The notes under the pieces were generated by a model. That model searched no databases and was not told the origin of the DNA. It saw only the letters and a list, made by a program, of their open reading frames with translations. Positions 1,591-16,037 of a DNA stretch of 33,160 nt are shown piece by piece (position 1 is the first letter of the stretch; every line of letters starts with the position of its first letter). This DNA comes from Candidatus Shapirobacteria bacterium. GTDB taxonomy: Bacteria > Patescibacteriota > Microgenomatia > UBA12405. A program made the translations under genes and the position numbers. Location: NCBI GenBank assembly GCA_028700345.1, contig JAQVSW010000001.1, positions 1 to 33,160 on the forward strand, written 5' to 3'.

Positions 1591-3198
1591 ATGTTGCTAA
1601 GTCTTCGATTTCATTCTTTTACTCAAAAGCGCCAAAAAAGTATTTTCTCAGCTACTGTCGTTTTGGCGATTACTTTTGCCCTTTCCGCTATTTTGGGTTT
1701 CCTCAGAACTCGCCTACTTTATTCATTCTTTTTTAAATGTTGCATTCTTGAGCTTGATGCTTACAACGCTGCTTTTCGAATTCCTGATTTAATTTTTAAA
1801 CTTTTGGTAACCGGTGCTCTTTCTGCCTCTTTTATCCCTGTCTTTAGCAGTTATTTACACAAAGATAAAAAAGAAGCCTATAAAATGGCCTCTTCGGTCA
1901 TTAATTTGCTTTTATTATTTTTTATCGGCGTCTCAATTGTTGCGTTTATCTTTGCCCACCCTCTTTCCGAGCTCATTGCCAAAGGTTTTTCTCCTTATCA
2001 AATTGATTTAATGTCTAATTTAAGTCGAATTCTTCTTATTGCTCAAATATTTTTTCTCATTAGTAATTTTTTAACTGCCATTCTTCAGGTTAATCAAACA
2101 TTTATTATTTCTGCCCTGTCTCCCATCGTTTACAATCTCTTCATTATTCTCAGTATTTATACTCTAGCTCCAACATTTGCTATTTATGGAGTTGCTTGGG
2201 GGGTCGTAATTGGCGCCTTTTTCCACATGGCTATTCAAATTCCTTCGATTAGGAGACTTGGCTTTGTTTATTCCAAAATTGCCAGCTTTAAACTTAGTGG
2301 AGTAAAAGAAATTGTTCATTTGATGATTCCCAGGACCTTGTCTTTAGGATTGGCCGAAATAGAAAATACAGTTACCTTATTTTTTGCCTCGAGTTTAAGT
2401 GCTGGTTCAATCTCGCTTTTAAATTTGGCTCTCCAATTAATGTATCTTCCTAGTCGTATTTTTGGAACTACCGTTGGCCAGGCCTCTTTACCTGTACTTT
2501 CAAAAAATATTGCCAAAAATCAACTCAATTTGTTTCGAGAAACCGTTAGAAATACAATTTTACAGAGCCTTTTTATTGCCTTCCCGGTTGGAGTTTTAAT
2601 TTTAATCAATCGCCTGCCTATTGTTCGCTTGGCTTTCGGCAGTCGGCAGTTTCCCTGGTCCGCCACTCTATTAACTGCTCGGACTTTGGCTTTTTTAACT
2701 CCCGCCATTATCTGTCAAGCCGTTATTCAAATTTTAATTCGTTCTTTTTATGCTCTACATGACACCAAAACTCCTTTAAAAATATCTAGTATTTCTCTGT
2801 TTTTTAATGTTATTTCCAGTTATTTTTTTGTTAAATTCACTACTCTAGGTATTGTTGGCTTAGCCATTAGTGCCTCCATCACAAACATTATTCAATGTTT
2901 CGGCCTCTTTGCTTTATTTGTCTGGCGAGTTGATGGTCAAGGCTGGGAAAAAATGTTTTTTTCTTTTAGTCGTATTGTTTTAAGTTCAATTTTTTGTGGC
3001 TTAACCTCCTGGCTAACTCTTCGTTTCTTTGATCTTTTTATCTTAGATACCAGTAAAACTTTAAATGTTATATTAATTTTTGGAATTTCAGTTGTTTCTG
3101 GTCTCTTTTCCTTCTTAATTTCCGCTTGGCTTTTTCATTCTCCTGAGTATCTTCGATTCAAGTCTTATTTCCTTCGATTCTTTCATTTTCTTTCTTAG
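1591..3198 (+). CDS. murJ: lipid II flippase MurJ/MviN
   Basis: 535 aa and polytopic. It carries the MurJ-typical N-terminal region RTRLLYSFF..AYNAAFRIPDLIFKLLVTGALSASFIPVFS. Confidence 0.9.
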   Translation: MLLSLRFHSFTQKRQKSIFSATVVLAITFALSAILGFLRTRLLYSFFFKCCILELDAYNAAFRIPDLIFKLLVTGALSASFIPVFSSYLHKDKKEAYKMASSVINLLLLFFIGVSIVAFIFAHPLSELIAKGFSPYQIDLMSNLSRILLIAQIFFLISNFLTAILQVNQTFIISALSPIVYNLFIILSIYTLAPTFAIYGVAWGVVIGAFFHMAIQIPSIRRLGFVYSKIASFKLSGVKEIVHLMIPRTLSLGLAEIENTVTLFFASSLSAGSISLLNLALQLMYLPSRIFGTTVGQASLPVLSKNIAKNQLNLFRETVRNTILQSLFIAFPVGVLILINRLPIVRLAFGSRQFPWSATLLTARTLAFLTPAIICQAVIQILIRSFYALHDTKTPLKISSISLFFNVISSYFFVKFTTLGIVGLAISASITNIIQCFGLFALFVWRVDGQGWEKMFFSFSRIVLSSIFCGLTSWLTLRFFDLFILDTSKTLNVILIFGISVVSGLFSFLISAWLFHSPEYLRFKSYFLRFFHFLS

Positions 3199-3224: not shown

Positions 3225-3803
3225 ATGCCTGCTAAAAAGGAGATTTCCTTATTACCAAACGAAGAAAACCTAAACACCTTTTCGGCCCGTTTTCTTAGAT
3301 GGGTTACCAGCGTGGGTCGAGTTGTGATTGTTTTTGTTGAGCTGATAGTAATTGGTGCTTTTTTATCTAGATTCTGGTTAGATAGAAAAAATTCAGATTT
3401 ATCCGAAACTCTTCGTCAACAAAAGGCTATTTTAGGCAGTACTCAGGAATTTGAAAAGGATTATCTTTCTCTTCAAGGACGGTTAAAATTTATTAAAAAT
3501 TTTTATAAAACAGAGCCCAAATACGTCCAATCTTTATCCTCTTTAATTCAAAGTATTCCCGAAGGGATTTATTTTCAAAACATTAGTTTTAATAGTAGTG
3601 AAAAAACAAATATTATAACCGGTAGTGTTGAATCATTTTCTTATCAGGAAGACGCCATCATAGACTTTATTGTTAATCTCAAGCTAAATCCCGATATTAG
3701 TTCGGTTAACGTTCAAAAAATTGAGAAAAAAACTAAGGATAGTAAATTTTATTTGAGTCTATCCTTATCTTTTAAAAAAAATGACCTCTCAAGCTCCAAA
3801 TAA
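3225..3803 (+). CDS. PilN-like bitopic membrane protein (fimbrial-assembly-type)
   Basis: 192 aa. The N-terminal KKEISLLPNEEN resembles the PilN INLLP motif. It is followed by one TM segment, a coiled-coil-like stretch and an alpha/beta C-terminal domain. Confidence 0.45.
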   Translation: MPAKKEISLLPNEENLNTFSARFLRWVTSVGRVVIVFVELIVIGAFLSRFWLDRKNSDLSETLRQQKAILGSTQEFEKDYLSLQGRLKFIKNFYKTEPKYVQSLSSLIQSIPEGIYFQNISFNSSEKTNIITGSVESFSYQEDAIIDFIVNLKLNPDISSVNVQKIEKKTKDSKFYLSLSLSFKKNDLSSSK

Positions 3804-4392
3804 TTTAAATATCTATTCCAGAGTTAGCCCTCTTCTCTCGTATTTATCAAAACAAAGTGAGAATAATAAATTTATTAAATCTGTTGAAATTAGCGCTACT
3901 TTTGTATTAATTTCTTTTTTTACTTTTTTTGCGATAAAACCAACCTTTTTAACAATTTCCAAGCTTGTTGGTGATATTAAAGCTAAAGAAATATTAGTCA
4001 AAGAATTAAAGGCAAAAATTAATAATGTGATTGTTTCTCAAGATCTTTTTTCGGAGGTTCAGGAAAAATACGCCTTAATTGAATCAAGCTTGCCTAGTAG
4101 CCCTCGTTTTTATCAAGCCGCCTCTCAAGTTGTTGGCTTGACTGAAAAAAACCAAATATATTTAGATAAGATAAATTACTCAATCACCGATTCCAATTAT
4201 TATTCCACCAGTATTAGCACCTCTTCTTCATTTTTATCTGCAACCTCTCTTTTATCTGAACTTCTTCAAAATCGACGACTTTTCCAAATTGATCAAATTT
4301 CTTTTTCACTTGAAAAAGACACTGGAAGCAAAATGATAAATATAAACTTGCCTTTAAAGATTTATTACTGGCCCAATAATGTCCAAAATTAA
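3781..4392 (+). CDS. PilO-like bitopic membrane protein
   Basis: 203 aa with one TM segment (FVLISFFTFFAI) followed by IKPTFLTISKLVGDIKAKEILVKELKAKINN, which looks like a coiled coil. It overlaps the previous gene by 23 nt. The assignment rests on architecture only. Confidence 0.35.
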   Translation: MTSQAPNNLNIYSRVSPLLSYLSKQSENNKFIKSVEISATFVLISFFTFFAIKPTFLTISKLVGDIKAKEILVKELKAKINNVIVSQDLFSEVQEKYALIESSLPSSPRFYQAASQVVGLTEKNQIYLDKINYSITDSNYYSTSISTSSSFLSATSLLSELLQNRRLFQIDQISFSLEKDTGSKMININLPLKIYYWPNNVQN

Positions 4393-4639
4393 ACTTTCAA
4401 AATATCTGGTTTTGATAAGTATTTTTACTTTTATTGCCATTTTTTTCTCTGTTGTCTCCCAAAGTTACAACAATTTAATTAAATCAACCGAGGAAAATCA
4501 AAACAACCCCCTTATTCGTTCTGTCTCTCCCGATCTTGACATTGATGTTCTTGATGAGATTGAAAAAAGGCAAGAAGTGATATTGTTAGAAACAGAAAAC
4601 TCCATCGAGGCAGAGAGTCAAGTTGAACCAGCCTTATGA
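4379..4639 (+). CDS. small membrane protein with acidic C-terminus, unknown function
   Basis: 86 aa with an N-terminal TM segment (YLVLISIFTFIAIFFSVV). It overlaps the upstream gene by 14 nt and the downstream gene through ATGA. Confidence 0.5.
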   Translation: MSKIKLSKYLVLISIFTFIAIFFSVVSQSYNNLIKSTEENQNNPLIRSVSPDLDIDVLDEIEKRQEVILLETENSIEAESQVEPAL

Positions 4640-5877
4640 AGGATAAAAAATTCCCAACTATTTTTGGAATCATTCTTCTTTTAATTATCTTATTTTTAGG
4701 TGTTTTTCTCTCCACTCAAAAAACAAGTTTAAATTCAAAAGCCAGTGTTTCTTGTGAGCCTATAAATACTCAAATAACCAATCTTACTGATAAATCTTTT
4801 GATTTTTCTTTTACCACTTCTTCTCCCTGTAGTGCTACCCTAACAATCAATAATATTCTTTATCAGGATGTTTCACTTTCTTTAACTACTCATTATTACA
4901 AGATTTTTAATCTTTCTCCCAAAACTGATTATAAATTCAGTCTTATTTCCGGTTCAACCACCTATTCCAGACCTGAATATTCTCTTACCACTGCCACAAA
5001 ACCAAATTCACCACCTCCCTCATCAAATTTAGCTTGGGGAAAAATAATTGATAAAAGCAACAAAGCTGTTTCTGGTGCCATAATTTATCTTACTCTTCCC
5101 GGCAGTCAAGCTCTTTCTGCCTTTTCCAATAAAGATGGTAACTGGAATATTTCTCTCGCTTCTAGTTTTAATGAGCAAAAAACCGATTGGTTTTCTCCCT
5201 CTTCGATTGTTGATGAAGAAATAATTGTCTATTCACCTGATGGTCAGTTAACTCAGGTTACTAATCAATCAGATCGAAACGATCCAGTTCCAGATATTAT
5301 TATCGGTCAAGATTATCTTTCTGTTATTCCCACCCCTCCCTCTTCATTTCAAAGCAGTTTAAATTCCTCTCAAATAGAGACCAGTTTAGCAAAATTAAGT
5401 ATTACCAGTCCTAAAGAAAATGAAACAATTTATACTTTAAAACCTGATATTTTTGGTCAAGGTCCAGCCAGTAATACCTTTCAATTAGATATAGATGGCA
5501 ATAAAGAAAATATCACCGTTTCCCCAAGTAATATTTGGAATTACTCTCCTTCTCAAAACTTATCACCTGGTTCTCATTTGTTAACATTAAATTTTCAAGG
5601 TGAAATTATAAGTCGTAATTTTGTAGTAGCTCAAACTAATGATTATCTTTCTTTTACCGCTACGCCTTCAGCCACTTTAATTCCCACTCAAGTTGTTATT
5701 CCCACGATTTTCGCTTCGCCAACTCCTATTATCCAGCCTACTTTAGTTCCTACTATCAGAACCGCCAAGCCTTCAACTACTTCCACTCTCTATGAAAGTG
5801 GTAATTCCCTGCCAACTTATTTAATATCGATTTTATCTATTTTATTTTTTGGTGTATCATTTTATTACTCTCATTAA
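4636..5877 (+). CDS. multidomain surface protein (Fn3-like, carboxypeptidase-regulatory-like and Ig-like beta domains, PT-rich linker, C-terminal TM tail)
   Basis: 413 aa with an N-terminal signal/anchor. WGKIIDKSNKAVSGAIIYLTLPGS..NKDGNWNISL resembles a CarboxypepD_reg-type domain. The C-terminus is LYESGNSLPTYLISILSILFFGVSFYYSH. Confidence 0.6.
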   Translation: MKDKKFPTIFGIILLLIILFLGVFLSTQKTSLNSKASVSCEPINTQITNLTDKSFDFSFTTSSPCSATLTINNILYQDVSLSLTTHYYKIFNLSPKTDYKFSLISGSTTYSRPEYSLTTATKPNSPPPSSNLAWGKIIDKSNKAVSGAIIYLTLPGSQALSAFSNKDGNWNISLASSFNEQKTDWFSPSSIVDEEIIVYSPDGQLTQVTNQSDRNDPVPDIIIGQDYLSVIPTPPSSFQSSLNSSQIETSLAKLSITSPKENETIYTLKPDIFGQGPASNTFQLDIDGNKENITVSPSNIWNYSPSQNLSPGSHLLTLNFQGEIISRNFVVAQTNDYLSFTATPSATLIPTQVVIPTIFASPTPIIQPTLVPTIRTAKPSTTSTLYESGNSLPTYLISILSILFFGVSFYYSH

Positions 5878-6866
5878 TGAAAAAATACGGTATTTTTAGT
5901 ATTCTATTTTTATTCCTTTCTTTGTTGGGGTCTCTTTATTTAGTCAAGATGAATCAAGATAATCGTAAGTATGCTCTAGATACTTATCGAGTCGACCCCC
6001 CAAACATTACTTTTACCTCCAATAAATCTGTCAAACTTTTTTTTACTACCAAAATTACTAATAATTCCTTTATTATTAAACTTCAGAATATAAATAATTC
6101 CAATGATATTATTACCCTTAGTACTGGCAATTCTCCAATGCCGATCAACACTACCCATATTTTTTCAAACATCTTAACTACCGGCTCTTCCCCAGCTACT
6201 TATCGTTTATCGGTTAAAGCCAGTCGTGATCTGTCTAACGCTTACGGCTGGGTGAATCCTAATTCTGGAGAAACTTGTGGAAAAAATAATAGCACCATAG
6301 TTCCTATTGGAGACGATATTAATCGGGCTCAACAAGAAGCAGATGGTCCTTTTCAAATTCAATGTTGGGCGGATGCCATCATTCCCGATGATACCCAAGA
6401 TTATGATTTTAATGATTGGTTAATGATTTTTGGATATGAAAAACCAATTGAAATTTCTCCAACTCCCACTAACACACCAGTTCCCACCGCCACCGGTACT
6501 CCTAAACCAACCAATACCCCCGTCCCCACTGCAACCAATATTCCTAAGCCCACCGCCACCAATACCCCCGTCCCCACTGCAACCAATACTCCTGCCCCTA
6601 CCGCCACCGGTACTCCTAAACCAACCAATACCCCCGTCCCCACTGCAACCAGTACTCCTAAGCCCACCGCCACTGGCACTCCTCAGCCTACTGCTACCAA
6701 TACGCCAATTCCGCCCACAAATACTCCTCTTCCAACCCAAGTCATTGCCCAGGGTCCTAGTCCAACTCGGATAATTTTACTTGAGTCCGGCATTGAATTT
6801 CCTTCCCAAATCTTAACTATCTTTGGTGGCATCATCACTCTTCTTGGATTTTTGATATTATTGTAG
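5877..6866 (+). CDS. surface protein with DUF4114-like motif, long TPxPTAT repeat linker and C-terminal TM tail
   Basis: 329 aa with an N-terminal signal-like segment. CWADAIIPDDTQDYDFNDWLMIFGY resembles the WED..D.DFND signature of DUF4114. About 95 aa consist of Pro/Thr repeats. The C-terminus is LLESGIEFPSQILTIFGGIITLLGFLILL. Confidence 0.6.
   Translation: MKKYGIFSILFLFLSLLGSLYLVKMNQDNRKYALDTYRVDPPNITFTSNKSVKLFFTTKITNNSFIIKLQNINNSNDIITLSTGNSPMPINTTHIFSNILTTGSSPATYRLSVKASRDLSNAYGWVNPNSGETCGKNNSTIVPIGDDINRAQQEADGPFQIQCWADAIIPDDTQDYDFNDWLMIFGYEKPIEISPTPTNTPVPTATGTPKPTNTPVPTATNIPKPTATNTPVPTATNTPAPTATGTPKPTNTPVPTATSTPKPTATGTPQPTATNTPIPPTNTPLPTQVIAQGPSPTRIILLESGIEFPSQILTIFGGIITLLGFLILL
6456..6740 (+). 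repeat. in-frame imperfect tandem repeat encoding (T/N)TP(V/K/A/Q)PTAT units
   Basis: A 47-nt perfect direct repeat (caccggtactcctaaaccaaccaatacccccgtccccactgcaacca) occurs at 6491..6537 and 6605..6651. A third copy of aatacccccgtccccactgcaaccaata lies at 6561..6588. Confidence 0.9.
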
Positions 6867-6867
6867 T

Positions 6868-7773
6868 GTGTTAGCCATTATTGAAGCTCTTCGTCCAAAT
6901 CAGTGGATAAAAAATCTTAGTCTTTTCGCAGCGGCCATTCTCACTGGTCAACTTTTTAATCACAGAATATTTAATGCCAGCTTACTCGCATTTATTTCTT
7001 TTTGTGTTCTTTCCTCATCCTCTTATTTAGTCAATGATCTTCTTGATATTGATAAAGATCGTCTTCATCCTGTTAAAAAATATCGCCCACTTGCTCGTGG
7101 AGCTATTAGTAAAAATACTTCTCTTTTTGTTGCTCTTTTTTTAACAATTCTGGGTCTTTTTATTGCTTTTTCTATAAATTCAGCTTTTTTTATTATCGCT
7201 CTTGTTTTTATTTTTATGCAGTATTCATATTCTCTTTTTATTAAAAAAAAGGCCCTTATAGACATTGTCAGTATTGCATTTTTCTTTATTCTCAGAACTT
7301 ATGCTGGTGAAATTGCCACTGGCTTCCATTTGCCTATTTGGATTACCCTGACAGTTATTTTTCTAGCTTTATTTATTGCTAGTGGTAAACGACGGAGCGA
7401 ACTCTACCTCAGTGGAAAATCAACTCGCAAAGCTCTTGAGGGATACAGTAAAAGTTTACTAAATTTTTACACTACTATTTTTGCCGTCTGTACCTTAATT
7501 AGCTATGCCATGTTTACTTTTTTAGCCGAAAAAGTTAGTTTTGATGGCATTATTCATGAGTTTTTATTGACAAATTTTCCCGCCGCTCTTGATCGAAAAT
7601 GGTGGATGGTTACTCTTATGCCCGTAATTCTTGGCATTATGCGTTATGGTCAAATTATTTTTGAAATGCAGGAAGGTGAAAGGCCTGAAAGAGTTGTTGC
7701 CACCGATATTCCCTTACTTGGTTCAGTTCTTCTTTGGGGAATGATGATAATTACTATTATCTATGTTCTCTAA
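6868..7773 (+). CDS. UbiA-family prenyltransferase, decaprenyl-phosphate phosphoribosyltransferase (DPPR synthase)-like
   Basis: 301 aa with a GTG start. The N-terminal ALRPNQWIKNL and the NDLLDIDKDRLHPVKKYRPLARGAIS motif (NDxxDxxxD) match what I recall for Rv3806c-type enzymes. The protein is polytopic. Confidence 0.75.
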   Translation: MLAIIEALRPNQWIKNLSLFAAAILTGQLFNHRIFNASLLAFISFCVLSSSSYLVNDLLDIDKDRLHPVKKYRPLARGAISKNTSLFVALFLTILGLFIAFSINSAFFIIALVFIFMQYSYSLFIKKKALIDIVSIAFFFILRTYAGEIATGFHLPIWITLTVIFLALFIASGKRRSELYLSGKSTRKALEGYSKSLLNFYTTIFAVCTLISYAMFTFLAEKVSFDGIIHEFLLTNFPAALDRKWWMVTLMPVILGIMRYGQIIFEMQEGERPERVVATDIPLLGSVLLWGMMIITIIYVL

Positions 7774-9319
7774 AAAAAATTCTCTCTCTCTTTTTTTGAT
7801 TATTTTTATAGTTTCATTGTCTATTTTTACCCGTTTTTACAATTTAAACTGGGGTAGTAATTACCATTTTCATCCTGATGAAAACAATATGGCCTCGGCT
7901 CTTTCTCGTTTACAGATTTACAATTTAGATCCCAAATTTTATCCTTACGGCCAGTTTCCTCTTTATTTAGGGTTTTTTACTTTAAAAATATTTAATCTTC
8001 CCCCTTCTTTTTCTAATTCAATTTTAATTCTTCGCTTTTATTCTGCCTTTTTTTCTATCTTATCAGTCGGTTTAATTTATTTAGTTTCTCAAAAAATTTT
8101 TTCCCAAAAATTTTCTATCTTAGTCTCAATTTTAACTATTTTTAGTCCTGGACTAATTCAGCTAGCTCATTTTGGGACTACCGAAAGCCTATTAATTTTT
8201 ATATTTTTACTCGAAATATATTTATCAATTTTGATTTACCAAAAAAAAGATAATTATTGGCAGTACATCCTTGCTGGCATCTTTGGCGGTATTGGCATAG
8301 CCACTAAAATATCCTCTCTTATTTTTTTAGGTCCAATTTTTTTAGTTTCTCTAATGAAATTTATTTCAAAAGAAAAAATACTATCTCTTTTTTTAAAAAT
8401 TTATATATTAATATTTTTTGTTATTAACTTTTATTTGATTTCTTCTCCATACAATTTTGCTAAGAGTCAAGATTTCTTCTCCTCGATGAAATATGAAACT
8501 AGTGTTGCCACTGGGGAGTTGTCAGTTTTTTACACCACTCAGTTTAAAAATACCCTACCTTATTTATTTCAAATCCAAAAAATATTTCCTTATTCTTCAG
8601 GTATCTTTCAATTCATCTTTACCATCATTGGTCTAGTTTTTTTATTGAAAAATTGGAAACTCAAAGAAGATAAATATCTTTACTGGTTTATTATTTTGAT
8701 TCCTTCTTTAGTTTACTTTTTTTATTTCGGTCAAATTTTTGCTAAATGGACCCGTTTCGTCTCCCCTTTATTTTTTTTATTTCCCCTACTCTCAGTTTAT
8801 TTTATTTCTCTCCTGAAATCTAAAATCTATTGTCTAATCTCTATCATCTTAGCTCTCCTTCCCGGTCTATATTTTATGAAACTATATTTTGTCTCTGATA
8901 TTCGTCTTACTGCTTCCCGGTGGATAGAAAATAATATTCCGCAGGGTTCAAGCATTCTTTCTGAGGGGGGTAATGTCGTTAATATTCCAATTACTGATCA
9001 AAACTACCAGGTTATTAATTATGATTTCTATGGTGATAATTATCCAAACGAATTGTCTAATCATCTCTTTACTTCTAACTATATTATTATTCCTTCTCGT
9101 CGGGTCTTTAAAAATTATGATTTAAAATATCACCAGTATCTTTTTGATGGTAGCCTGGGATATAAAGAAATCAATAAAATATCTCCCAATTACGACCTGT
9201 TTTTAGATTCAGAAAATGCTGAAGAAACTTGGTCCGTTTTTGATCATCCCACTATTCGAGTTTTTGAAAAAGTTAATGAGTTGACTCAAGAGGAATATGA
9301 AAAGCTTCTACAAAAATAA
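7763..9319 (+). CDS. GT-C fold membrane glycosyltransferase (GT39/ArnT-like), paralog 1
   Basis: 518 aa with many TM segments. The first loop reads FYNLNWGSNYHFHPDENNM, an acidic DE motif after TM1. The soluble C-terminal domain carries WSVFDHPTIRVFEK. Confidence 0.65.
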   Translation: MFSKKNSLSLFLIIFIVSLSIFTRFYNLNWGSNYHFHPDENNMASALSRLQIYNLDPKFYPYGQFPLYLGFFTLKIFNLPPSFSNSILILRFYSAFFSILSVGLIYLVSQKIFSQKFSILVSILTIFSPGLIQLAHFGTTESLLIFIFLLEIYLSILIYQKKDNYWQYILAGIFGGIGIATKISSLIFLGPIFLVSLMKFISKEKILSLFLKIYILIFFVINFYLISSPYNFAKSQDFFSSMKYETSVATGELSVFYTTQFKNTLPYLFQIQKIFPYSSGIFQFIFTIIGLVFLLKNWKLKEDKYLYWFIILIPSLVYFFYFGQIFAKWTRFVSPLFFLFPLLSVYFISLLKSKIYCLISIILALLPGLYFMKLYFVSDIRLTASRWIENNIPQGSSILSEGGNVVNIPITDQNYQVINYDFYGDNYPNELSNHLFTSNYIIIPSRRVFKNYDLKYHQYLFDGSLGYKEINKISPNYDLFLDSENAEETWSVFDHPTIRVFEKVNELTQEEYEKLLQK

Positions 9320-10949
9320 ATTAATAATATTTTTAATTTTTATAATTGCCTTTCTTTTTCGTATTTACGGTTTAAATTGGGATGATAACAATCATCTTCA
9401 TCCTGACGAGAGATTTTTGACTATGGTCGTAAACGATATCAAATTACCCTCTTCTTTTTCAGAGTATCTAAACACCGACATTTCACCTCTTAATCCTTAC
9501 AATTACCCTCAGTATCAGTTTTTTGTTTACGGTACTTTTCCTCTATTTTTAACAAAAATATTCGCCGTATTATTTCATCTAGATGATTATAATCACATCA
9601 CCCTCCTTGGCCGAGTACTCTCGGCATTTTTTGATTCAGGCAACGTTATTCTTCTTTATTTTATTGCCAAAAAATTTCTTAAATCTTACTATATTTTTCT
9701 TCCTTCGCTTTTTTATACTTTTTTAGTTATCCCTCTCCAGCTTTCTCATTTTTTCGCCGTTGATACTTTTTTAACTTTTTTTATTCTCTTAACATTTACC
9801 TTATTTTCTTATAATCTTTTTCCTCTTGCCTTTTTTGCTTTTGGTATTGCTCTTTCCTGTAAAATTTCCGCTCTTTACTTTATTCCGATTATCCTTTTAT
9901 TTTTAATCAAAAATAAAAATCTAAAATCTATTTTCTATTGTCAAATTTCTATTTTGGCTTTTCGAATATTTCAACCTTATGCTTTTACTAATATTTTTAA
10001 AATTAATCCTCTCTTTATTGATAATCTAAAAACCCTTGCCAATTTTTCCGGATCTGATATTTATTATCCACCGGGAGTTCAGTGGATCAATCGACTTTTG
10101 TTTTTAGATTCTTCAGTTAATCTAGTTGTTTGGGGATTGGGTCTGGTATTTTCTTTACCTTTATTATTTTTAATTTTTCGTTTTTTTATTAAACCAAAAA
10201 TTAAATTTAATTTAATCTTCATTATTTCTTTTTGGATTATCCTACTGTTTATTTATCAATCTCTCCAATTTGCTCACACTATGCGTTATTATCTGCCTGT
10301 TTATCCGTTTATTTGTCTAATTTTTGTAACTCTTTTGTCTCAATTTAAATTAAAAAAATTCATAATTATTTTAATCTTAATCCTTAATATTTTTTATGCC
10401 CTTGCTTTTCTCTCAATTTATTCTCGTCCCAATTCTCGGATACAGGCATCAAATTGGATAAATCAATATATTCCTCAGGGCAGTGTTCTAAGTAGTGAAT
10501 ATTGGGACGATGCCCTGCCTCTAGGTTATTCTGATTATGAAAATATCTCTCTCCCTCTTTTTGATCCAGACACTCCAGAAAAATGGGAAAAAATCAACCA
10601 TTCGCTTGAGGAGATTGATTATATAATAATGTCCAGCAATCGTCTATGGGCCTCAATTCCTAGAGTTTCAGAGAAGTATCCCTTAGCTTCAGAATTTTAT
10701 AGAAACCTTTTTGCTGAAAAATTAAATTTTAAAAAATTCAAAGAATTTAATTCTTACCCCGGTTTTTCTCTCTCGTTTCTAAAATCTTGTCTATACCTAG
10801 GCCCTACCAATTACCCTGGCATTAAAAACACCTGGTTTTCTGTTGACAATAACTGTTCTTATCCAGGTATTTATTTTCGTGATGACACCTCCGAGGAAGC
10901 ATTTACTGTCTACGACCATCCGAAGGTTTTAATCTTTGAGAGAAAATGA
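9297..10949 (+). CDS. GT-C fold membrane glycosyltransferase (GT39/ArnT-like), paralog 2
   Basis: 550 aa with the same architecture as paralog 1. The first loop reads IYGLNWDDNNHLHPDERFL and the C-terminus reads FTVYDHPKVLIFERK. It overlaps the previous gene by 23 nt. Confidence 0.65.
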   Translation: MKSFYKNKLIIFLIFIIAFLFRIYGLNWDDNNHLHPDERFLTMVVNDIKLPSSFSEYLNTDISPLNPYNYPQYQFFVYGTFPLFLTKIFAVLFHLDDYNHITLLGRVLSAFFDSGNVILLYFIAKKFLKSYYIFLPSLFYTFLVIPLQLSHFFAVDTFLTFFILLTFTLFSYNLFPLAFFAFGIALSCKISALYFIPIILLFLIKNKNLKSIFYCQISILAFRIFQPYAFTNIFKINPLFIDNLKTLANFSGSDIYYPPGVQWINRLLFLDSSVNLVVWGLGLVFSLPLLFLIFRFFIKPKIKFNLIFIISFWIILLFIYQSLQFAHTMRYYLPVYPFICLIFVTLLSQFKLKKFIIILILILNIFYALAFLSIYSRPNSRIQASNWINQYIPQGSVLSSEYWDDALPLGYSDYENISLPLFDPDTPEKWEKINHSLEEIDYIIMSSNRLWASIPRVSEKYPLASEFYRNLFAEKLNFKKFKEFNSYPGFSLSFLKSCLYLGPTNYPGIKNTWFSVDNNCSYPGIYFRDDTSEEAFTVYDHPKVLIFERK

Positions 10950-11707
10950 AATTAATAAAAATTTTAAAATACTATTTCCACATTCTATTACTGATGTTTT
11001 TAAATATAAAAACAATTTCTTATCATCATAAATATTTTTTTATTAAGCTAAAAAACAATACTGTTTTTAAAATTAGAAATTTTATGGATTTATGGACTTT
11101 AACTGAAACATACTTGAATAGTGACTATGAAAAACATGGTGATAAATTAGGTGTGAATTGGACTATTATTGATATCGGTGCTGCTTTCGGCGACTTTTCA
11201 GTTTTTGCAGCTCAAAAATCATCGCTAAATCAAATTATCGCCATTGAACCTCTGCCGAGCTCTCAAAGACTGTTTCGTCAAAATATTAGAATGAATAAAT
11301 TAAAAAATATAATAATTTTTTCTGGGGGAATTTCTTCAACTCAAAATAAAATAAATATCGCAGAAAATAATAAAAATTATGGTCATAGTCAAACGTCTTC
11401 GACTTCTTCCTTTTGTGTCGACGCCATTTCTTTGCCAAAATTATTTTCAAAATATAATCTGAAACATTGTCATTTAATTAAGTGTGATTGTGAAGGAACA
11501 GAATATGATATTTTTTCAAATGTTCCCTCATCAATCTACGCCAAAATTGACCGTATCGTTATGGAATATCATTTGTTTGATTTTGACTCCCAGCAAAAAT
11601 TTCAACGCCTTAAATCAATTTTTAAAAAAAATAATTATCGACTTAAAATTTCTCCTAATCCGGTTCATTCAAATCTCGGTTTTCTTTACGCCTTTCGCAA
11701 AAATTGA
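10946..11707 (+). CDS. FkbM-family SAM-dependent methyltransferase
   Basis: 253 aa. IIDIGAAFGDFSVFAA is a SAM-binding Gly-rich loop, and IKCDCEGTEYDIF is a typical FkbM motif. It overlaps the upstream gene through ATGA. Confidence 0.7.
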   Translation: MKLIKILKYYFHILLLMFLNIKTISYHHKYFFIKLKNNTVFKIRNFMDLWTLTETYLNSDYEKHGDKLGVNWTIIDIGAAFGDFSVFAAQKSSLNQIIAIEPLPSSQRLFRQNIRMNKLKNIIIFSGGISSTQNKINIAENNKNYGHSQTSSTSSFCVDAISLPKLFSKYNLKHCHLIKCDCEGTEYDIFSNVPSSIYAKIDRIVMEYHLFDFDSQQKFQRLKSIFKKNNYRLKISPNPVHSNLGFLYAFRKN

Positions 11708-12388
11708 GTTTGACTTTGTTTTCTGTTGAAAAATATACCCAATATTTTTCAACAAGGATTTTATTCTTGTATTTCCATCTTCAACACATATTACTTTTGG
11801 GCTATATTTATTCCATGGCCAATTTTTTAATATCATTTCATCAAATCCCTCAGTATCAATTGACAAAAAATCAATATTTTCATCAATAATCTCATCTACT
11901 TTTATAGTTTTAATTTTTATTATTTTTTCTAATTTATGTCCATTGTTAATATTTTTTTCAGCATCTCCTTTTGAAAAAGTATTTAGAGCTGGTATTAAAA
12001 ATTGATAATAATTCATACTGCCATTTATATTTGAAATACCAGCGTTTATAAAATTATCTTCCGGACGGATTTTATTAAAAATATTTTTGACTTCCGGATT
12101 TGGCTCAACAACAGTACCCCTCCAACCTATTTTATAAAAATGATAAGTATTACTAAGTCTAGTCGGGTGATATGCTCCAATTTCAAGATATTTACCTCGG
12201 TATTTTCTATCAAAATATTTTTCAACAATTAAGTCCTCATAATTTTGTGAATAAGATCCCACCAGCATCTCCCTCCATATTCTTCTCTTTATTTCTTTCA
12301 ACCCAGCTTTAATTAAAAATCCTAATTTATAATTCTTAATCAATTCAAAATATTTTTTCATATTTTTTAACAGTTTTTTTGTAGTCAA
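11669..12388 (-). CDS. FkbM-family SAM-dependent methyltransferase
   Basis: 239 aa with YLEIGAYHPTRLSNTY and FLSIDTEGFDEMIL. The true start may be the internal ATG at 12361 (MKKYFELIKN). Confidence 0.65.
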   Translation of the reverse strand: MTTKKLLKNMKKYFELIKNYKLGFLIKAGLKEIKRRIWREMLVGSYSQNYEDLIVEKYFDRKYRGKYLEIGAYHPTRLSNTYHFYKIGWRGTVVEPNPEVKNIFNKIRPEDNFINAGISNINGSMNYYQFLIPALNTFSKGDAEKNINNGHKLEKIIKIKTIKVDEIIDENIDFLSIDTEGFDEMILKNWPWNKYSPKVICVEDGNTRIKSLLKNIGYIFQQKTKSNSIFAKGVKKTEI

Positions 12389-13415
12389 ACAATTCTAAAT
12401 TTTTAGCTCTCTTTTTATAGAATTCTTTGCCATTTTTGCAAACTAAAATAATTTTATTTTTTAATTCTTCACTCTTATTGCTTTCAAAAAGCTCTCCCAT
12501 TTTGCTTAATTTTACTGGCAGTCTTACTCCAGGAATATCTGAAGTAATTACTGGACAGCCACTTTTTATAGCCTCTGCGGCTACCATCCCAAAAGATTCC
12601 AGGGGGTTATTGCTCGGCAATACAAGACAATTTATACTGTTAAAGAATTTTACTGGGTTGTCAATTTCACCTATTTTAAAAATATTTTCATTCTTTTTTA
12701 TAAGATTCAAAATATTTTTTTGATATTTTTTTTCACCAACTATTTTTTCTGGTCCAGCCAATACTAAAACATAGTTTTTTGGTAATTTTAAAAATGCTTT
12801 GATCAAGCATTCAATATTTTTTTCTTTAGAAATTCTCCCTAAATATCCAATTTTATATTTACCATTTATTTTAATTCTTCCGCCACTTTTTTTAATTTTA
12901 ATGGGTGGAAAAATTTCAACTATTTTATCTTGGTAATTATTTAGTAAATTGTTTCCCTTAACATAATCAAGAGAATTAACCACTATTTTTTCTGCCCAAA
13001 TTAAGGCGGGTAAGTGAATTAATTCAATAATTAAATTTAGAAATTTGTTTTCACTATCAAAACGGCAATGAAAGGTGACAATCAGTTTTTTCTTTAAAAT
13101 CTTTGCCCAAAGTGCTAGCCAAAAAGATTCAATTGACGGCAGATGACAGTTAACAATATCGTTATTTTTTACTTTTTTAAAACTAATAATTGGGTATTGC
13201 CACATTAAAAATCCTTTACCGATTTGCCATCCCTGAACTCTGTTGATTATTACATTATTTATTATTTCTTCATTCTTTAATTCTTTCTGAAACTTTGCAC
13301 CAATTACTTCTACCCTATTTTTCTTTGCTAATTCTTCGGCTAATATTTTAGCGTAAACACTCACTCCAGAAATATAAGGGCAGTAGTAGGTAACTCCAAT
13401 TAAAATTCTTTTCAT
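12345..13415 (-). CDS. GT4 (group 1) glycosyltransferase
   Basis: 356 aa with GT-B architecture. The E-x7-E motif is present in ESFGMVAAEAIKSGCPVITSD. Confidence 0.8.
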   Translation of the reverse strand: MKRILIGVTYYCPYISGVSVYAKILAEELAKKNRVEVIGAKFQKELKNEEIINNVIINRVQGWQIGKGFLMWQYPIISFKKVKNNDIVNCHLPSIESFWLALWAKILKKKLIVTFHCRFDSENKFLNLIIELIHLPALIWAEKIVVNSLDYVKGNNLLNNYQDKIVEIFPPIKIKKSGGRIKINGKYKIGYLGRISKEKNIECLIKAFLKLPKNYVLVLAGPEKIVGEKKYQKNILNLIKKNENIFKIGEIDNPVKFFNSINCLVLPSNNPLESFGMVAAEAIKSGCPVITSDIPGVRLPVKLSKMGELFESNKSEELKNKIILVCKNGKEFYKKRAKNLELFDYKKTVKKYEKIF

Positions 13416-13438: not shown

Positions 13439-14014
13439 ATGTCTACTGGTCATCCAGCTTTTCTTTTTTGGCAACCCAAAGTTGATTATCTTCGCCTTTT
13501 ATCTTCTTTTAAATTTGGTCGTAATATTTTAATTTTTTTAAACTATGCGATTTGGTTATTTTTTTTCTATCTTTCATATCTTTTAATAAAACACGATTTT
13601 TCTTTTTTTTGGTTACTACTATTAACCACATTATTGGCAGAAATAGTTGAACGTTTAATTAAGAAAAAAAATTTTTGGTGTCGACCTATGTTCTTGCGTC
13701 ATGACTGTACTCCCTCGGGTTTAGTTGACAAGTGGTACCGATCAGGAGCTTTTCCTTCAGGCCATACCATAAAGGCCACCATATTTCTTTTGTTTTTAAT
13801 TTTTACCCCTCTTTTTCCTTTGTGGCTATTTTTCATAATTGTCCTTCCCTTATTATGGTTTAGAGTCCTTGTCGGTTTTCATTATCCTGTCGATATTTTG
13901 GGTGGTATTGCAATCGGTTTTTTTATCTGGCTTATTATTTCTTTTCTAAATATAACTACCCCCCTTGATCCTTATTTACAGTCTATATTTAATACTATTT
14001 TTCTAATCAACTAA
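13439..14014 (+). CDS. PAP2-family membrane phosphatase (polyprenyl/lipid phosphate phosphatase type)
   Basis: 191 aa. All three PAP2 motifs are visible: KKKNFWCRP (KX6RP), FPSGH (PSGH) and RVLVGFHYPVD (RX5HX3D). Confidence 0.8.
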   Translation: MSTGHPAFLFWQPKVDYLRLLSSFKFGRNILIFLNYAIWLFFFYLSYLLIKHDFSFFWLLLLTTLLAEIVERLIKKKNFWCRPMFLRHDCTPSGLVDKWYRSGAFPSGHTIKATIFLLFLIFTPLFPLWLFFIIVLPLLWFRVLVGFHYPVDILGGIAIGFFIWLIISFLNITTPLDPYLQSIFNTIFLIN

Positions 14015-14024
14015 TTATCTAATC

Positions 14025-16037
14025 ATGCTTTCTGATTTTAAATATATTTTTACTTGGTGGCTTAGTCTATTTTTTCTTTCCTTTCTTTCTTTACCTTTAA
14101 TCTTTTTACTCTTCAAAAAATTTTGGGATAAAGGTTATATTTTTGCCAAAACTTGTTCAATTTTTATTTTAAGTTACTTCCTGTTAGTTTTAGGGATATT
14201 TAAAATTACTACTTTTACCCTACCTTGCATTTATTTTATTATCACCATCTACGCCGCTATTAATTTTTATTTATTTATTAAAAATAAATTATATTTTAAG
14301 AGTTTATTTAAAAAACATTGGCGAATTTTTCTTTTTGAGGAAATTTTATTTTTTCTTATCTTAATGCTTTGGTCTTATGTTCGTGGCTTTGCTCCCGATA
14401 TTGAAGGTCTTGAAAAATTTATGGACTGGGGTTTTGTTAATTCGGCCCTTCGCAGTCAGTATTTTCCTCCAGCTGACATGTGGTATGCTGGCCAGTCGAT
14501 TAATTATTATTATTTTGGCCATTTAGTTTTTGCATTTTTAACCAAATTTTCAGGTATTGCTTCAGCTATTACTTATAATCTATCTATTGCCACTGTCTGC
14601 GGCCTAACCTTTGTTTCGGGATTCTCATTGACTTCAAACTTAATTTATAGCACCCTCAAAAAACCCATTTTTCGACTGTATTTTGTTGGTGGTCTTTTAT
14701 CAGCCTTTTTATTAACCTTCGGCGGCAATCTTCACCTCATCTATAAGATTAGTAAAACCATGATCGAAGAAAAACAAAATCTTCAATCGGCAAGTGCTAG
14801 TTATTGGTATCCTGACGCTACTCGTTTTATTGGTTTTGATCCTGATACTACAGATAAAACTATTCACGAATTTCCCATGTATAGCTTCGTTGTTGCCGAC
14901 CTTCATGGCCATATGAATGACATCCCTCTGGTAATTTTCTTCATGGCCTTCCTCTTTGTTTCTCTCACCTCAATCTCAAATTTAAAATCTTATTTCTTTC
15001 TCCCGGCTGGTTTTCTTCTATCTCTGGCTTATATGACCAATGCCTGGGATTTTGCTGTTTATGGTTTACTTTTTGCCATTGCTTCTTTTTTGGTTACTAA
15101 AAAATTTTGGCCAACCATTTTTTCTGGTCTTTTAACTATTGCCTTTTGGTTTTTATTTACCCTTCCTTTTTCTCTCAATTTCACTCCCATGGCTGAAGGT
15201 CTGGAGCTTTCTGATGCCCGTTCACCCTTATATCAACTCTTCGTTTTATACGGTGGTTTTTGGTTAATTTCCCTGCCTTTTATATCTTATTTTTTTAAGA
15301 ATTTTCGCTCCAAAAAAATCTTATCAACAGATTATTTTGTTTTAGCTATATTAATTACCGCCACTATTTTAATCATAATTCCTGAAATTTTTTATATCAA
15401 AGATATTTATGTTTTTGACTATCGCCGAGCCAATACCATGTTCAAATTAGTTTACCAAGCTTTCATTATGTATTCCCTTATTGCTGGTTATATTTTTATT
15501 CGTCTTCGTCATTCTTTTGCTTATCGTTTTCTTTTTTCTTTAGTTTTTATTTTTCATCTTAGCTATTCTTATTTCGCCACCAAATCATATTACGGTTTAA
15601 AAGAATATAAGAGCCTTTGGGGTTTAAAATTTTTAGAAATTTCTTATCCAGATAATCTGGCTGCCATAAACTGGTTAAACAATAATATTTCTGGTCAACC
15701 TCATATCGTCGAAGCCGTGGGGGATAGCTACACCACCTTTAATCAGATTTCAATGGCGACTGGCTTACCTACCATTGAGGGGTGGATAGTTCATGAATGG
15801 CTCTGGAGGGGAGGTTATGATGCCCCCGCTGCCCGCCAAAATGAAGTTGAAATTATTTATACCTCTGTCGATTCCCGGGAAGTGAAGTCTATTTTAGACA
15901 AATATCAAATTAAATATATTATCGTTGGCGCCAAAGAATATGAAAAATACCCCGACCTCGATCCAGATAAATTTGATTTAGTTGATGCCAAAGTCGTTTT
16001 CGAATCGGGTCAAACCAGAATTTATCAACTACCTTAA
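14025..16037 (+). CDS. DUF2298-type large polytopic membrane protein (predicted GT-C-like)
   Basis: 670 aa. EKFMDWGFVNSALRSQYFPPADMWYAGQSINYYYFGH and DLHGHM resemble the DUF2298 signature as I recall it. A soluble C-terminal domain is present. Confidence 0.6.
   Translation: MLSDFKYIFTWWLSLFFLSFLSLPLIFLLFKKFWDKGYIFAKTCSIFILSYFLLVLGIFKITTFTLPCIYFIITIYAAINFYLFIKNKLYFKSLFKKHWRIFLFEEILFFLILMLWSYVRGFAPDIEGLEKFMDWGFVNSALRSQYFPPADMWYAGQSINYYYFGHLVFAFLTKFSGIASAITYNLSIATVCGLTFVSGFSLTSNLIYSTLKKPIFRLYFVGGLLSAFLLTFGGNLHLIYKISKTMIEEKQNLQSASASYWYPDATRFIGFDPDTTDKTIHEFPMYSFVVADLHGHMNDIPLVIFFMAFLFVSLTSISNLKSYFFLPAGFLLSLAYMTNAWDFAVYGLLFAIASFLVTKKFWPTIFSGLLTIAFWFLFTLPFSLNFTPMAEGLELSDARSPLYQLFVLYGGFWLISLPFISYFFKNFRSKKILSTDYFVLAILITATILIIIPEIFYIKDIYVFDYRRANTMFKLVYQAFIMYSLIAGYIFIRLRHSFAYRFLFSLVFIFHLSYSYFATKSYYGLKEYKSLWGLKFLEISYPDNLAAINWLNNNISGQPHIVEAVGDSYTTFNQISMATGLPTIEGWIVHEWLWRGGYDAPAARQNEVEIIYTSVDSREVKSILDKYQIKYIIVGAKEYEKYPDLDPDKFDLVDAKVVFESGQTRIYQLP

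Follow-up and report, generated by a model that had tools for sequence, protein, structure and literature searches.

The window analysed here is a whole contig (C45) of 33,160 bases, with a G+C content of about 33%, from a Candidatus Shapirobacteria bacterium; the assembly amounts to 705 kb in 87 contigs and is estimated to be 88.9% complete. On its plus strand lies a chain of nine tightly joined genes (3225-11707). An earlier note, made from the sequence alone, had read this chain as a self-contained cassette encoding both Pro/Thr-rich (PT-rich) surface proteins and the enzymes that glycosylate them. The chain is best seen as a composite of two neighbouring envelope modules, A (3225-6866) and B (6868-11707, and on to 16037), set on a conserved backbone. 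Module B is, with moderate probability, a lipid-linked pentofuranose system whose most likely acceptor is a WecA-primed wall or lipid-linked glycan. Glycosylation of the protein stalks is possible, and the description of the locus as a surface-protein glycosylation cassette is partly supported. The gene calls used are the longest open reading frames (ORFs), and all genomes compared are metagenome-assembled genomes (MAGs). The nine genes are as follows (aa, amino acids).

3225..3803, plus strand: PilN-like bitopic protein (Pfam PilN, 29.8 bits against a cut-off of 22.8)
3781..4392, plus strand: PilO-like bitopic protein (match of its family profile, A3, to PilO structures)
4379..4639, plus strand: small membrane protein (86 aa), with a transmembrane helix at the N-terminus and an acidic tail
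4636..5877, plus strand: 413-aa surface protein, with an N-terminal transmembrane helix, three beta-sandwich (fn3/Ig-like) domains, a stalk and a C-terminal transmembrane helix
5877..6866, plus strand: 329-aa surface protein, by its translation made up of a signal or anchor at the N-terminus, a globular domain, a stalk and a C-terminal transmembrane helix
6868..7773, plus strand: UbiA-family polyprenyl-phosphate 5-phosphoribosyltransferase of the decaprenylphosphoryl-5-phosphoribose (DPPR) synthase type, 301 aa, GTG start
7763..9319, plus strand: GTC1, a GT-C glycosyltransferase (Pfam PMT and PMT_2, E 1.5e-9)
9297..10949, plus strand: GTC2, a paralogue of GTC1 (phmmer against GTC1, E 2.7e-20)
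10946..11707, plus strand: FkbM-family S-adenosylmethionine-dependent methyltransferase (TIGR01444, 90.3 bits, above cut-off)

The UbiA protein has its nearest counterparts in the characterised DPPR synthases, ahead of the other UbiA prenyltransferases. Its match to decaprenyl-phosphate phosphoribosyltransferase (PDB 8j8j) has an E value of 1.9e-37, with the next UbiA family at 1.9e-9. It is also recognised by Pfam UbiA (E 7e-22) and by NCBIfam NF008978 (E 1.8e-60; 204.6 bits, the equivalog cut-off lying 2.4 bits higher at 207). NDxxDxxxD, the first Asp-rich motif, is present, with YLVNDLLDIDKDRLHPVKKYRPLARG of the window aligned to YLVNDVRDVEADREHPTKRFRPIAAG of 8j8j, and the two proteins share the longer pattern YLVNDxxDxxxDRxHPxKxxRPxAxG. 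The predicted substrates are phosphoribosyl pyrophosphate (PRPP) and polyprenyl phosphate. The lipid-carrier sugar-donor synthase that the earlier note had recognised in the chain is present, in the form of this DPPR-synthase-type UbiA. Because it is of this type and not a GT2 mannose-phosphate-lipid synthase, the expected donor is a pentose and not mannose, predicted to be a PRPP-derived lipid-linked pentofuranose (polyprenyl-phosphate ribofuranose or a derivative). A GT2-GtrA_DPMS fusion is encoded only away from the locus, on contig C43.

Both of the 500-aa GT-C proteins have a polytopic GT-C fold, GTC1 by its model and GTC2 by paralogy, and an acidic motif in the first extracytoplasmic loop. 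The model of GTC1 (predicted local distance difference test score, pLDDT, 90.2; predicted template-modelling score, pTM, 0.91) has helices only up to residue 391, followed by a small alpha/beta C-terminal domain with the sequence EETWSVFDHP. In outer loop 1 of GTC1 the motif is HPDE, of which P38-D39-E40 is invariant in 37 sequences; GTC2 has HPDE in the same place and also YDHP. Pfam PMT matches GTC1 with 38.2 bits (cut-off 22.7), over residues 86-227 only, and PMT_2 matches GTC2 below its cut-off (E 6e-3, 17.2 bits). Foldseek relates GTC1 with a probability of 1.00 to ALG12, STT3, AglB, PglB, ArnT, Pmt4, AftA/B/D and Emb, and the template-modelling (TM) scores, 0.4-0.53, are about equal across ALG12/ALG9, STT3/AglB/PglB, ArnT, Pmt4, DPY19, AftA/B/D and Emb. 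The GTC1 profile gave weak GT-C matches only among PDB sequences (PIG-M 1e-4, Pmt2 4e-3), matches above E 0.09 being taken as noise.

The protein O-mannosyltransferases (PMTs, family GT39) prefer Thr/Pro-rich segments of exported proteins as targets, and the earlier note had drawn its analogy from the actinobacterial members. The GT-C fold, the D-E motif in outer loop 1 and the Pfam PMT match of GTC1 are shared with them. In contrast, no MIR domain is found in GTC1 by Pfam or in the model, the locus has no GT2 polyprenyl-phosphate-mannose synthase, and the fold search for GTC1 does not separate PMT from ALG, oligosaccharyltransferase, ArnT or Aft proteins. As GTC1 has no MIR domain and GTC2 falls below the PMT_2 cut-off, sequence and model would place the two enzymes in the GT-C fold and outside GT39. 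Of the earlier description as two GT39/ArnT-like GT-C enzymes the GT-C fold stands; the assignment to GT39 and the mannose analogy are not supported, given the DPPR-type UbiA, the missing MIR domain and a fold search that does not single out the PMTs.

The position of ubiA in other genomes points to a glycan acceptor. In 15 of 16 loci of other orders of the class it is the last gene of a chain in which a membrane GT2 is encoded together with one or two PMT_2-type GT-Cs, a small transmembrane protein and a WecA-like protein, and in half of the loci of other classes (10/20) it lies at most three genes from a WecA-like gene. The genome studied here has the GT2/PMT_2-type GT-C/small transmembrane/WecA-like chain on another contig (C10:2895-7244, minus strand; relatives' loci L057-L083). 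Since ubiA is absent from that chain and adjoins GTC1 instead, it appears to have been relocated; its ancestral position is taken to be after the WecA-like gene. A further gene is tightly associated with GTC1. In other orders an amine-oxidase-type flavin adenine dinucleotide (FAD) oxidoreductase (NCBIfam PRK07233, 450 bits) is found directly upstream of ubiA or GTC1 (e.g., L094:10770-12041 and L093:10862-12148, annotated 'hypothetical protein'). The genome's own copy is on contig C4:12758-13957 (minus strand), convergent with the last of rmlB, rmlC and rmlD.

Conservation was followed at two levels, with 20 loci of the order plus the best 80 GTC1 loci, and with a class-level sample of 60 genomes in which GTC1 was counted at E 1e-25 or better. 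The related genomes are non-independent samples, and the counts are descriptive. Within Shapirobacteria the gene order is near-invariant, metG-rpsT-murJ-PilN-like-PilO-like-small-413-(329)-ubiA-GTC1-GTC2-(variable GT4/FkbM/others)-PAP2-DUF2298-uvrD-femX, and is kept in about 60 loci. The neighbourhood conservation that the earlier note had suggested as a check is thus seen throughout Shapirobacteria, but the housekeeping flanks (rpsT, murJ, uvrD, femX) are as conserved as the chain, so that adjacency within the order says little about function.

At the level of the class the parts come apart. UbiA was detected in 57 of the 60 genomes, the 413-aa family in 49 and GTC1 in 29; the surface protein occurs without GTC1 in 23 and GTC1 without the surface protein in 3. 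Where both are present (26 genomes), they lie within 6 kb of each other in 11, within 7-13 kb in 3, and on other contigs or 214 kb apart in 12, the 214-kb separation being that of one closed genome. In at least 6 of the 16 loci with the PilN-PilO-small-413 unit, the unit stays by rpsT/murJ with no GT-C near it, and GTC1-GTC2-DUF2298 is also found as a block without the PilN/PilO/413 unit. Close relatives differ in the genes that they have between GTC2 and PAP2, a variability that polysaccharide loci also show. The earlier note had held that its hypothesis would fail if GT-C genes occurred in relatives without adjacent PT-rich proteins, and in many relatives they do. With ubiA usually in the WecA chain as well, 'self-contained' is not supported as a description of the locus.

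Stalk composition was tried as a proxy for dependence on glycosylation and set aside. The P/T/S content does not differ between loci that have GTC1 and loci that lack it (P 0.15 vs 0.18, T 0.21 vs 0.21), and the test is weak because the relatives are not independent.

Upstream of the chain, within it and between its end and uvrD, the following further features are found.

1591..3198, plus strand: murJ, lipid II flippase (Pfam MurJ, E 1.3e-73; TIGR01695, 264.7 bits, above cut-off)
6486..6703, plus strand: tandem DNA repeat encoding the TPxPTAT stalk of the 329-aa protein, with a 24-nucleotide (nt) unit and a higher-order period of 114 nt
11669..12388, minus strand: second FkbM methyltransferase (Pfam Methyltransf_21, E 1.1e-17), convergent with the first, with a 39-nt overlap between the two
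12345..13415, minus strand: cytoplasmic glycosyltransferase of the GT4 family (GT-B fold; Pfam Glycos_transf_1, E 2.6e-27)
13439..14014, plus strand: PAP2 lipid-phosphate phosphatase (Pfam PAP2, E 4.4e-13)
14025..16037, plus strand: DUF2298/Chlor_Arch_YYY large polytopic protein (PF10060, E 6.5e-89; TIGR03662, 428 bits, above cut-off)

The methyltransferase that the earlier note had placed at the end of the chain is of the FkbM family. It is patchy, being present in a minority of related loci, and is accessory; the GT4 gene is common but variable among them. PAP2 is almost always paired with the DUF2298 gene. The best named relatives of PAP2 are undecaprenyl-diphosphatases, with weak scores, and it could be a phosphoribose phosphatase (Rv3807c-like) or a carrier-lipid pyrophosphatase. 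The DUF2298 protein aligns weakly with GTC1 (hhalign, probability 43%, E 2.6e-4), and because that probability is only 43% it is proposed only tentatively as a third GT-C-like enzyme. A literature search on DUF2298 and on DPPR synthase in Patescibacteria found nothing relevant.

From these genes a pathway can be proposed. UbiA, to judge from its family, would move ribose-5-phosphate from PRPP onto polyprenyl phosphate, and a phosphatase, for which PAP2 is the candidate, would remove the 5-phosphate. The lipid-linked sugar would then be flipped to the outer face of the membrane; the search of the assembly found no flippase candidate for this step, no GtrA-type flippase being linked to the locus and no small flippase lying in it. 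GTC1 and GTC2, which have the GT-C fold, and perhaps the DUF2298 protein would transfer the sugar to an acceptor outside the membrane. The GT4 and FkbM enzymes would act as variable accessories, and the stalk proteins encoded next to the pathway may serve as a second acceptor.

The decaprenyl-phospho-arabinose pathway of mycobacteria consists of Rv3806c, Rv3807c, DprE1/DprE2 and the Emb/Aft GT-Cs, with a WecA-primed carrier. The window's UbiA matches the Rv3806c-type enzyme, with the E value (1.9e-37) and the Asp-rich motif given above. A PAP2 phosphatase and several GT-Cs in one locus are further points of likeness, as is the place of ubiA after a WecA-like gene in relatives. The differences lie in the epimerase and in the transferases. 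No DprE1 was found in the assembly search, in which the sole FAD_binding_4 match is a 293-aa, MurB-sized ORF, and there is no DprE2 candidate near the locus, the two short-chain dehydrogenases/reductases of the assembly being generic and unlinked. The PRK07233-type FAD oxidoreductase is a candidate for a non-homologous stand-in for DprE1. The window's GT-Cs are like Emb and Aft at the level of the fold only (E 5e-4 to 0.1).

A three-component extracytoplasmic pentofuranose system has been described by Kelly et al. (2024, PNAS) for Citrobacter youngae O1/O2, in which, according to a commentary, a UbiA-like polyprenyl-phosphoribose synthase uses PRPP, dephosphorylation follows and a GT-C carries out transfer outside the membrane (PMC11194591). 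As set out in that commentary, the Citrobacter components are a fusion of the synthase with a phosphoribose phosphatase of the HAD type, together with a flippase and a GT-C, Bacillus versions have several GT-Cs and FAD-dependent oxidoreductases, and the characterised precedents of the donor pathway decorate polysaccharides, namely mycobacterial arabinan and the C. youngae O antigen (PMC11194591). The window locus resembles the Citrobacter and Bacillus systems, so described, in its combination of synthase and GT-C, and its relatives carry the FAD oxidoreductase upstream of ubiA/GTC1. In contrast to the Citrobacter system as it appears there, the window's UbiA is a stand-alone, single-domain protein without HAD, and PAP2 is the only phosphatase candidate. 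There is no small flippase, the GT-Cs number two or three where the other system has one, and the host, which belongs to the candidate phyla radiation (CPR), has no O antigen.

The same kind of donor can also be used on protein. In Pseudomonas aeruginosa Pa5196/PA7, pilin arabinosylation involves TfpW and PsPA7_6245-6249, with tfpW directly after the pilin gene and with DprE1/DprE2 needed (bioRxiv 10.1101/2020.04.19.049825). There a surface protein is modified by a GT-C that is fed by Rv3806c-/Rv3807c-like enzymes and linked to pilus genes, a setting that the window would share. The window differs in that no pilin gene is adjacent, DprE1/DprE2 were not found, and the neighbours are surface proteins of the sortase type.

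Module A contains a PilN/PilO-like pair without PilM, the small membrane protein, and Ig-like surface proteins, one or two in number, that would have wall-spanning stalks. The two secreted or anchored PT-rich proteins noticed earlier are confirmed, each with an N-terminal helix, a disordered PT stalk and a C-terminal helix. In the AlphaFold model of the 413-aa protein (mean pLDDT 76.9; domains 85-95) a disordered P/T/S stalk at residues 336-388 is followed by LYESG-x3-PT and the C-terminal transmembrane helix. Fold searches with this protein gave generic tandem Ig/fn3 adhesin-like matches only, with whole-chain TM below 0.2 and no functional lead. The 329-aa protein, which occurs in only about half of related loci, has the TPxPTAT repeat stalk followed by LLESG-xx-FPS. 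Its DNA repeat is reported by Tandem Repeats Finder with a period of 114, 1.9 copies, 87% matches and a score of 345.

Orthologs show what the tails probably are. When 31 orthologs of the 413-aa protein are aligned, [IV]Px[TS]G comes after the stalk (e.g., GIPKTG, GVPTTG, GVPVTG), then xx[LF]PT, then a hydrophobic helix with a K/R tail behind it; those of the 329-aa protein terminate in LPx[AS]G-x-[DE]FP and a transmembrane helix. These are probably LPXTG-like cell-wall sorting signals. Two sortase genes are found in the genome (contigs C63 and C14), and other proteins of the genome end in IPVTG or LPAAG followed by a helix and a basic tail. The window's own copies share the tail ESGxx[LF]P[TS] plus helix (5788-5874 and 6777-6863), in which neither the proline (the motifs read LYESG and LLESG) nor the basic tail is kept, so that processing of both by sortase is uncertain. 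This tail is unique to the two proteins in the genome and was considered as a new anchor signal; the ortholog alignment indicates a diverged signal of the LPXTG type.

In classical Gram-positive surface proteins the Pro/Thr-rich segment before the sorting signal is the wall-spanning region. The window's proteins and their orthologs resemble these in the signal, the Ig-like domains and the P/T stalk, with an LPXTG-like motif, helix and basic tail in the orthologs and two sortases in the genome; they differ in the motif of the window copies, which is without proline and without a basic tail. By this analogy the PT-rich stretch would be a wall-spanning stalk before a sortase-type signal, a simpler explanation than a glycosylation site. 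About six further PT-linker proteins are encoded elsewhere in the genome.

INLLP is the PilM-binding motif of PilN. The PilN-like protein of the window has an N-terminal EISLLP, then one transmembrane helix, a coiled coil and the PilN domain; EISLLP corresponds to INLLP/ISLLP in relatives, and the motif is conserved across the class. The second protein had no Pfam match as a single sequence, but its A3 profile matched PilO of Myxococcus (PDB 3jc8, E 1.2e-9) and of Pseudomonas (PDB 2rjz, E 0.002). PilN domain, INLLP motif and PilO fold are thus all found in the products of the first two genes of the chain. No PilM, pilus ATPase, platform protein or pilin is encoded in the window, and the only PilM of the genome is on contig C41 with its own PilN and PilO. 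Judged by sequence, the window's pair is a second set without PilM. The 86-aa protein had no Pfam or NCBIfam match and is conserved class-wide between the PilO-like gene and the 413-aa gene. The canonical pilM-pilN-pilO operon (C41:686-3029, minus strand) is accompanied by genes for large proteins that are pilin-like or secreted; pilB and pilT are found where another contig ends (C40:6789-9184).

The eight junctions of the chain are exactly as first described. They consist, in order, of a 23-nt overlap, a 14-nt overlap, ATGA, TAATG, a 1-nt gap, an 11-nt overlap, a 23-nt overlap and ATGA. They join nine genes; the count of ten that had been given holds only with murJ counted in. A later start would not do away with the 23-nt overlaps at 3781 and 9297, because there is no other in-frame start within at least 40 codons, and orthologous loci repeat the same tight junctions. 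The chain is the longest tight run in the assembly, the runner-up having seven genes. Genome-wide, a gap of 1 nt or less separates 38% of same-strand neighbour pairs (longest-ORF starts), so that the tight packing of the chain is enriched, not extraordinary. murJ, co-directional and 26 nt upstream, adjoins the PilN-like gene in nearly all relatives and is likely the first gene of the transcription unit.

The earlier note had also taken the lack of Shine-Dalgarno sequences at the internal starts as a sign of translational coupling. They are indeed absent, but none was found upstream of any of the 29 genes of the window, including dnaK, grpE, gatA/B and a uvrD-like gene. Their absence is therefore a trait of the organism, whose translation initiation appears to be Shine-Dalgarno-independent, and the coupling argument built on it is rejected. 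Scans for transcription signals gave 9 terminator-like sites where 8.4 were expected, which is background, and 88 promoter-like sites where 61 were expected, which is uninformative in AT-rich DNA. The best terminator-like site of the region, a G+C-rich 6-bp hairpin followed by ATTTTTT (9610-9625, plus strand), lies inside the coding sequence of GTC2. An Rfam scan of the window matched no family.

A glycan acceptor is favoured for module B because ubiA is linked to WecA, the content of glycosyltransferases and methyltransferases is variable, and the precedents mostly decorate polysaccharides. Several observations weigh against it. No homologue of DprE1 and no dedicated flippase was found in the window or in the rest of the 88.9%-complete assembly, and PAP2 may only recycle the carrier lipid. 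The same-strand, overlapping series 413-(329)-ubiA-GTC1-GTC2 is kept in the approximately 60 Shapirobacteria loci, and the 413-GTC1 chain is contiguous in the 11 of 26 more distant genomes mentioned above, which is more than is expected of a random neighbour. Finally, TfpW, working from the same donor pathway, is a GT-C that glycosylates a protein, the Pseudomonas pilin (bioRxiv 10.1101/2020.04.19.049825).

The last three of these observations are also the strength of the strongest alternative, which we consider doubtful though it deserves attention, in which the locus encodes both substrate and machinery and GTC1 and/or GTC2 O-glycosylate Thr/Ser of the stalks with the donor made by UbiA. Exposed PT-rich stalks are classical sites of O-glycosylation, and the top TM-score of GTC1 is with a protein O-mannosyltransferase, Pmt4 (TMq 0.53). 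Against this, in 23 of the 60 genomes the 413-aa family does without GTC1 and its stalk composition is unchanged, about half of the loci with both GT-Cs have no 329-aa protein, and GTC1 has no PT protein near it in roughly half of the distant genomes. The adjacency is in part conservation of the backbone, rpsT, murJ, uvrD and femX being equally syntenic, and the other PT-linker proteins are encoded elsewhere. The locus has neither the MIR domain specific to PMTs nor a synthase for a mannose donor.

A broader version of the same idea, which we regard as unlikely, would make the whole locus a hitherto unrecognised unit of surface-layer biogenesis in Microgenomates, in which a PilM-less PilN/PilO scaffold sets sortase-anchored Ig-like proteins by MurJ, the stalks are O-pentosylated on the outer side by GTC1/GTC2 from a polyprenyl-phosphate pentofuranose, and the PRK07233-type enzyme does any 2'-epimerisation of that donor instead of DprE1.

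It is quite unlikely that there is no functional link at all, with GTC1 and GTC2 placed here by inherited synteny and using another donor, e.g., the polyprenyl-phosphate hexose of the GT2-GtrA enzyme on C43. The collinearity from metG/rpsT to uvrD/femX across the order and much of the class would fit this, as would the 38% of same-strand pairs that are tightly packed anyway and the presence in the genome of the GT2-GtrA_DPMS enzyme and many other GT-C-like genes. In several orders, however, ubiA has moved beside GTC1 (or beside the FAD oxidoreductase and GTC1), which suggests selection for the pairing, and a DPPR-type synthase goes together with GT-C enzymes in characterised systems too (PMC11194591).

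Glycosylation of type IV pilins by the GT-Cs in the manner of TfpW, with the PilN/PilO-like genes as part of a pilus-linked glycosylation machine, is very unlikely: the chain does open with these genes, the genome has pilB/T, pilM and pilin-like genes, and the TfpW system runs on Rv3806c- and Rv3807c-like enzymes, but no pilin gene lies in the chain or adjoins the GT-Cs, the canonical pilus genes are on other contigs (C40 and C41), the PilN/PilO-like module is kept in places that have no GTC1, and GTC1 occurs without that module nearby.

The lipid-linked pentofuranose system with a glycan acceptor thus remains the reading that we prefer. Given the UbiA count of 57 in 60 genomes, the locus would mark a core envelope pathway of the class that uses a PRPP-derived lipid-linked pentose. 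To our knowledge such chemistry is otherwise known from the mycobacterial wall, some O antigens and one pilin system. CPR bacteria live attached to other cells, and we know of no experimental work on the envelope glycans and surface glycoproteins of Microgenomates or other CPR. The target of the GT-Cs, wall glycan or stalk proteins, would once shown be a first handle on the CPR cell surface, and finding it would also tell if the pathway runs without DprE1/DprE2. The analysis contributes the sortase-type reading of the tails, the counts of separability, the ancestral position of ubiA and the tight association of the FAD oxidoreductase with GTC1.

Some minor observations concern the sequences themselves. 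ORFs of 92, 106 and 114 aa over the PT repeat (6401-6774, both strands) are low-complexity by-products and not genes. Contigs of several relatives (L114, L117, L126, L152) stop just upstream of ubiA, at the expected PT-repeat gene, and the repeat may break assemblies at this point. Many MAG records (L114-L183) that share the gene order of the named Shapirobacteria and Woesebacteria loci are titled 'uncultured Gammaproteobacteria bacterium', 'Candidatus Methanoperedens sp.' or 'Clostridia bacterium', which are probably placeholder or wrong labels. Elsewhere in the genome a 29-kb contig (C56:300-28980) encodes at least a dozen large polytopic GT-C-looking proteins interleaved with GT2 genes, a very large share of a 705-kb genome given to extracytoplasmic glycosylation.

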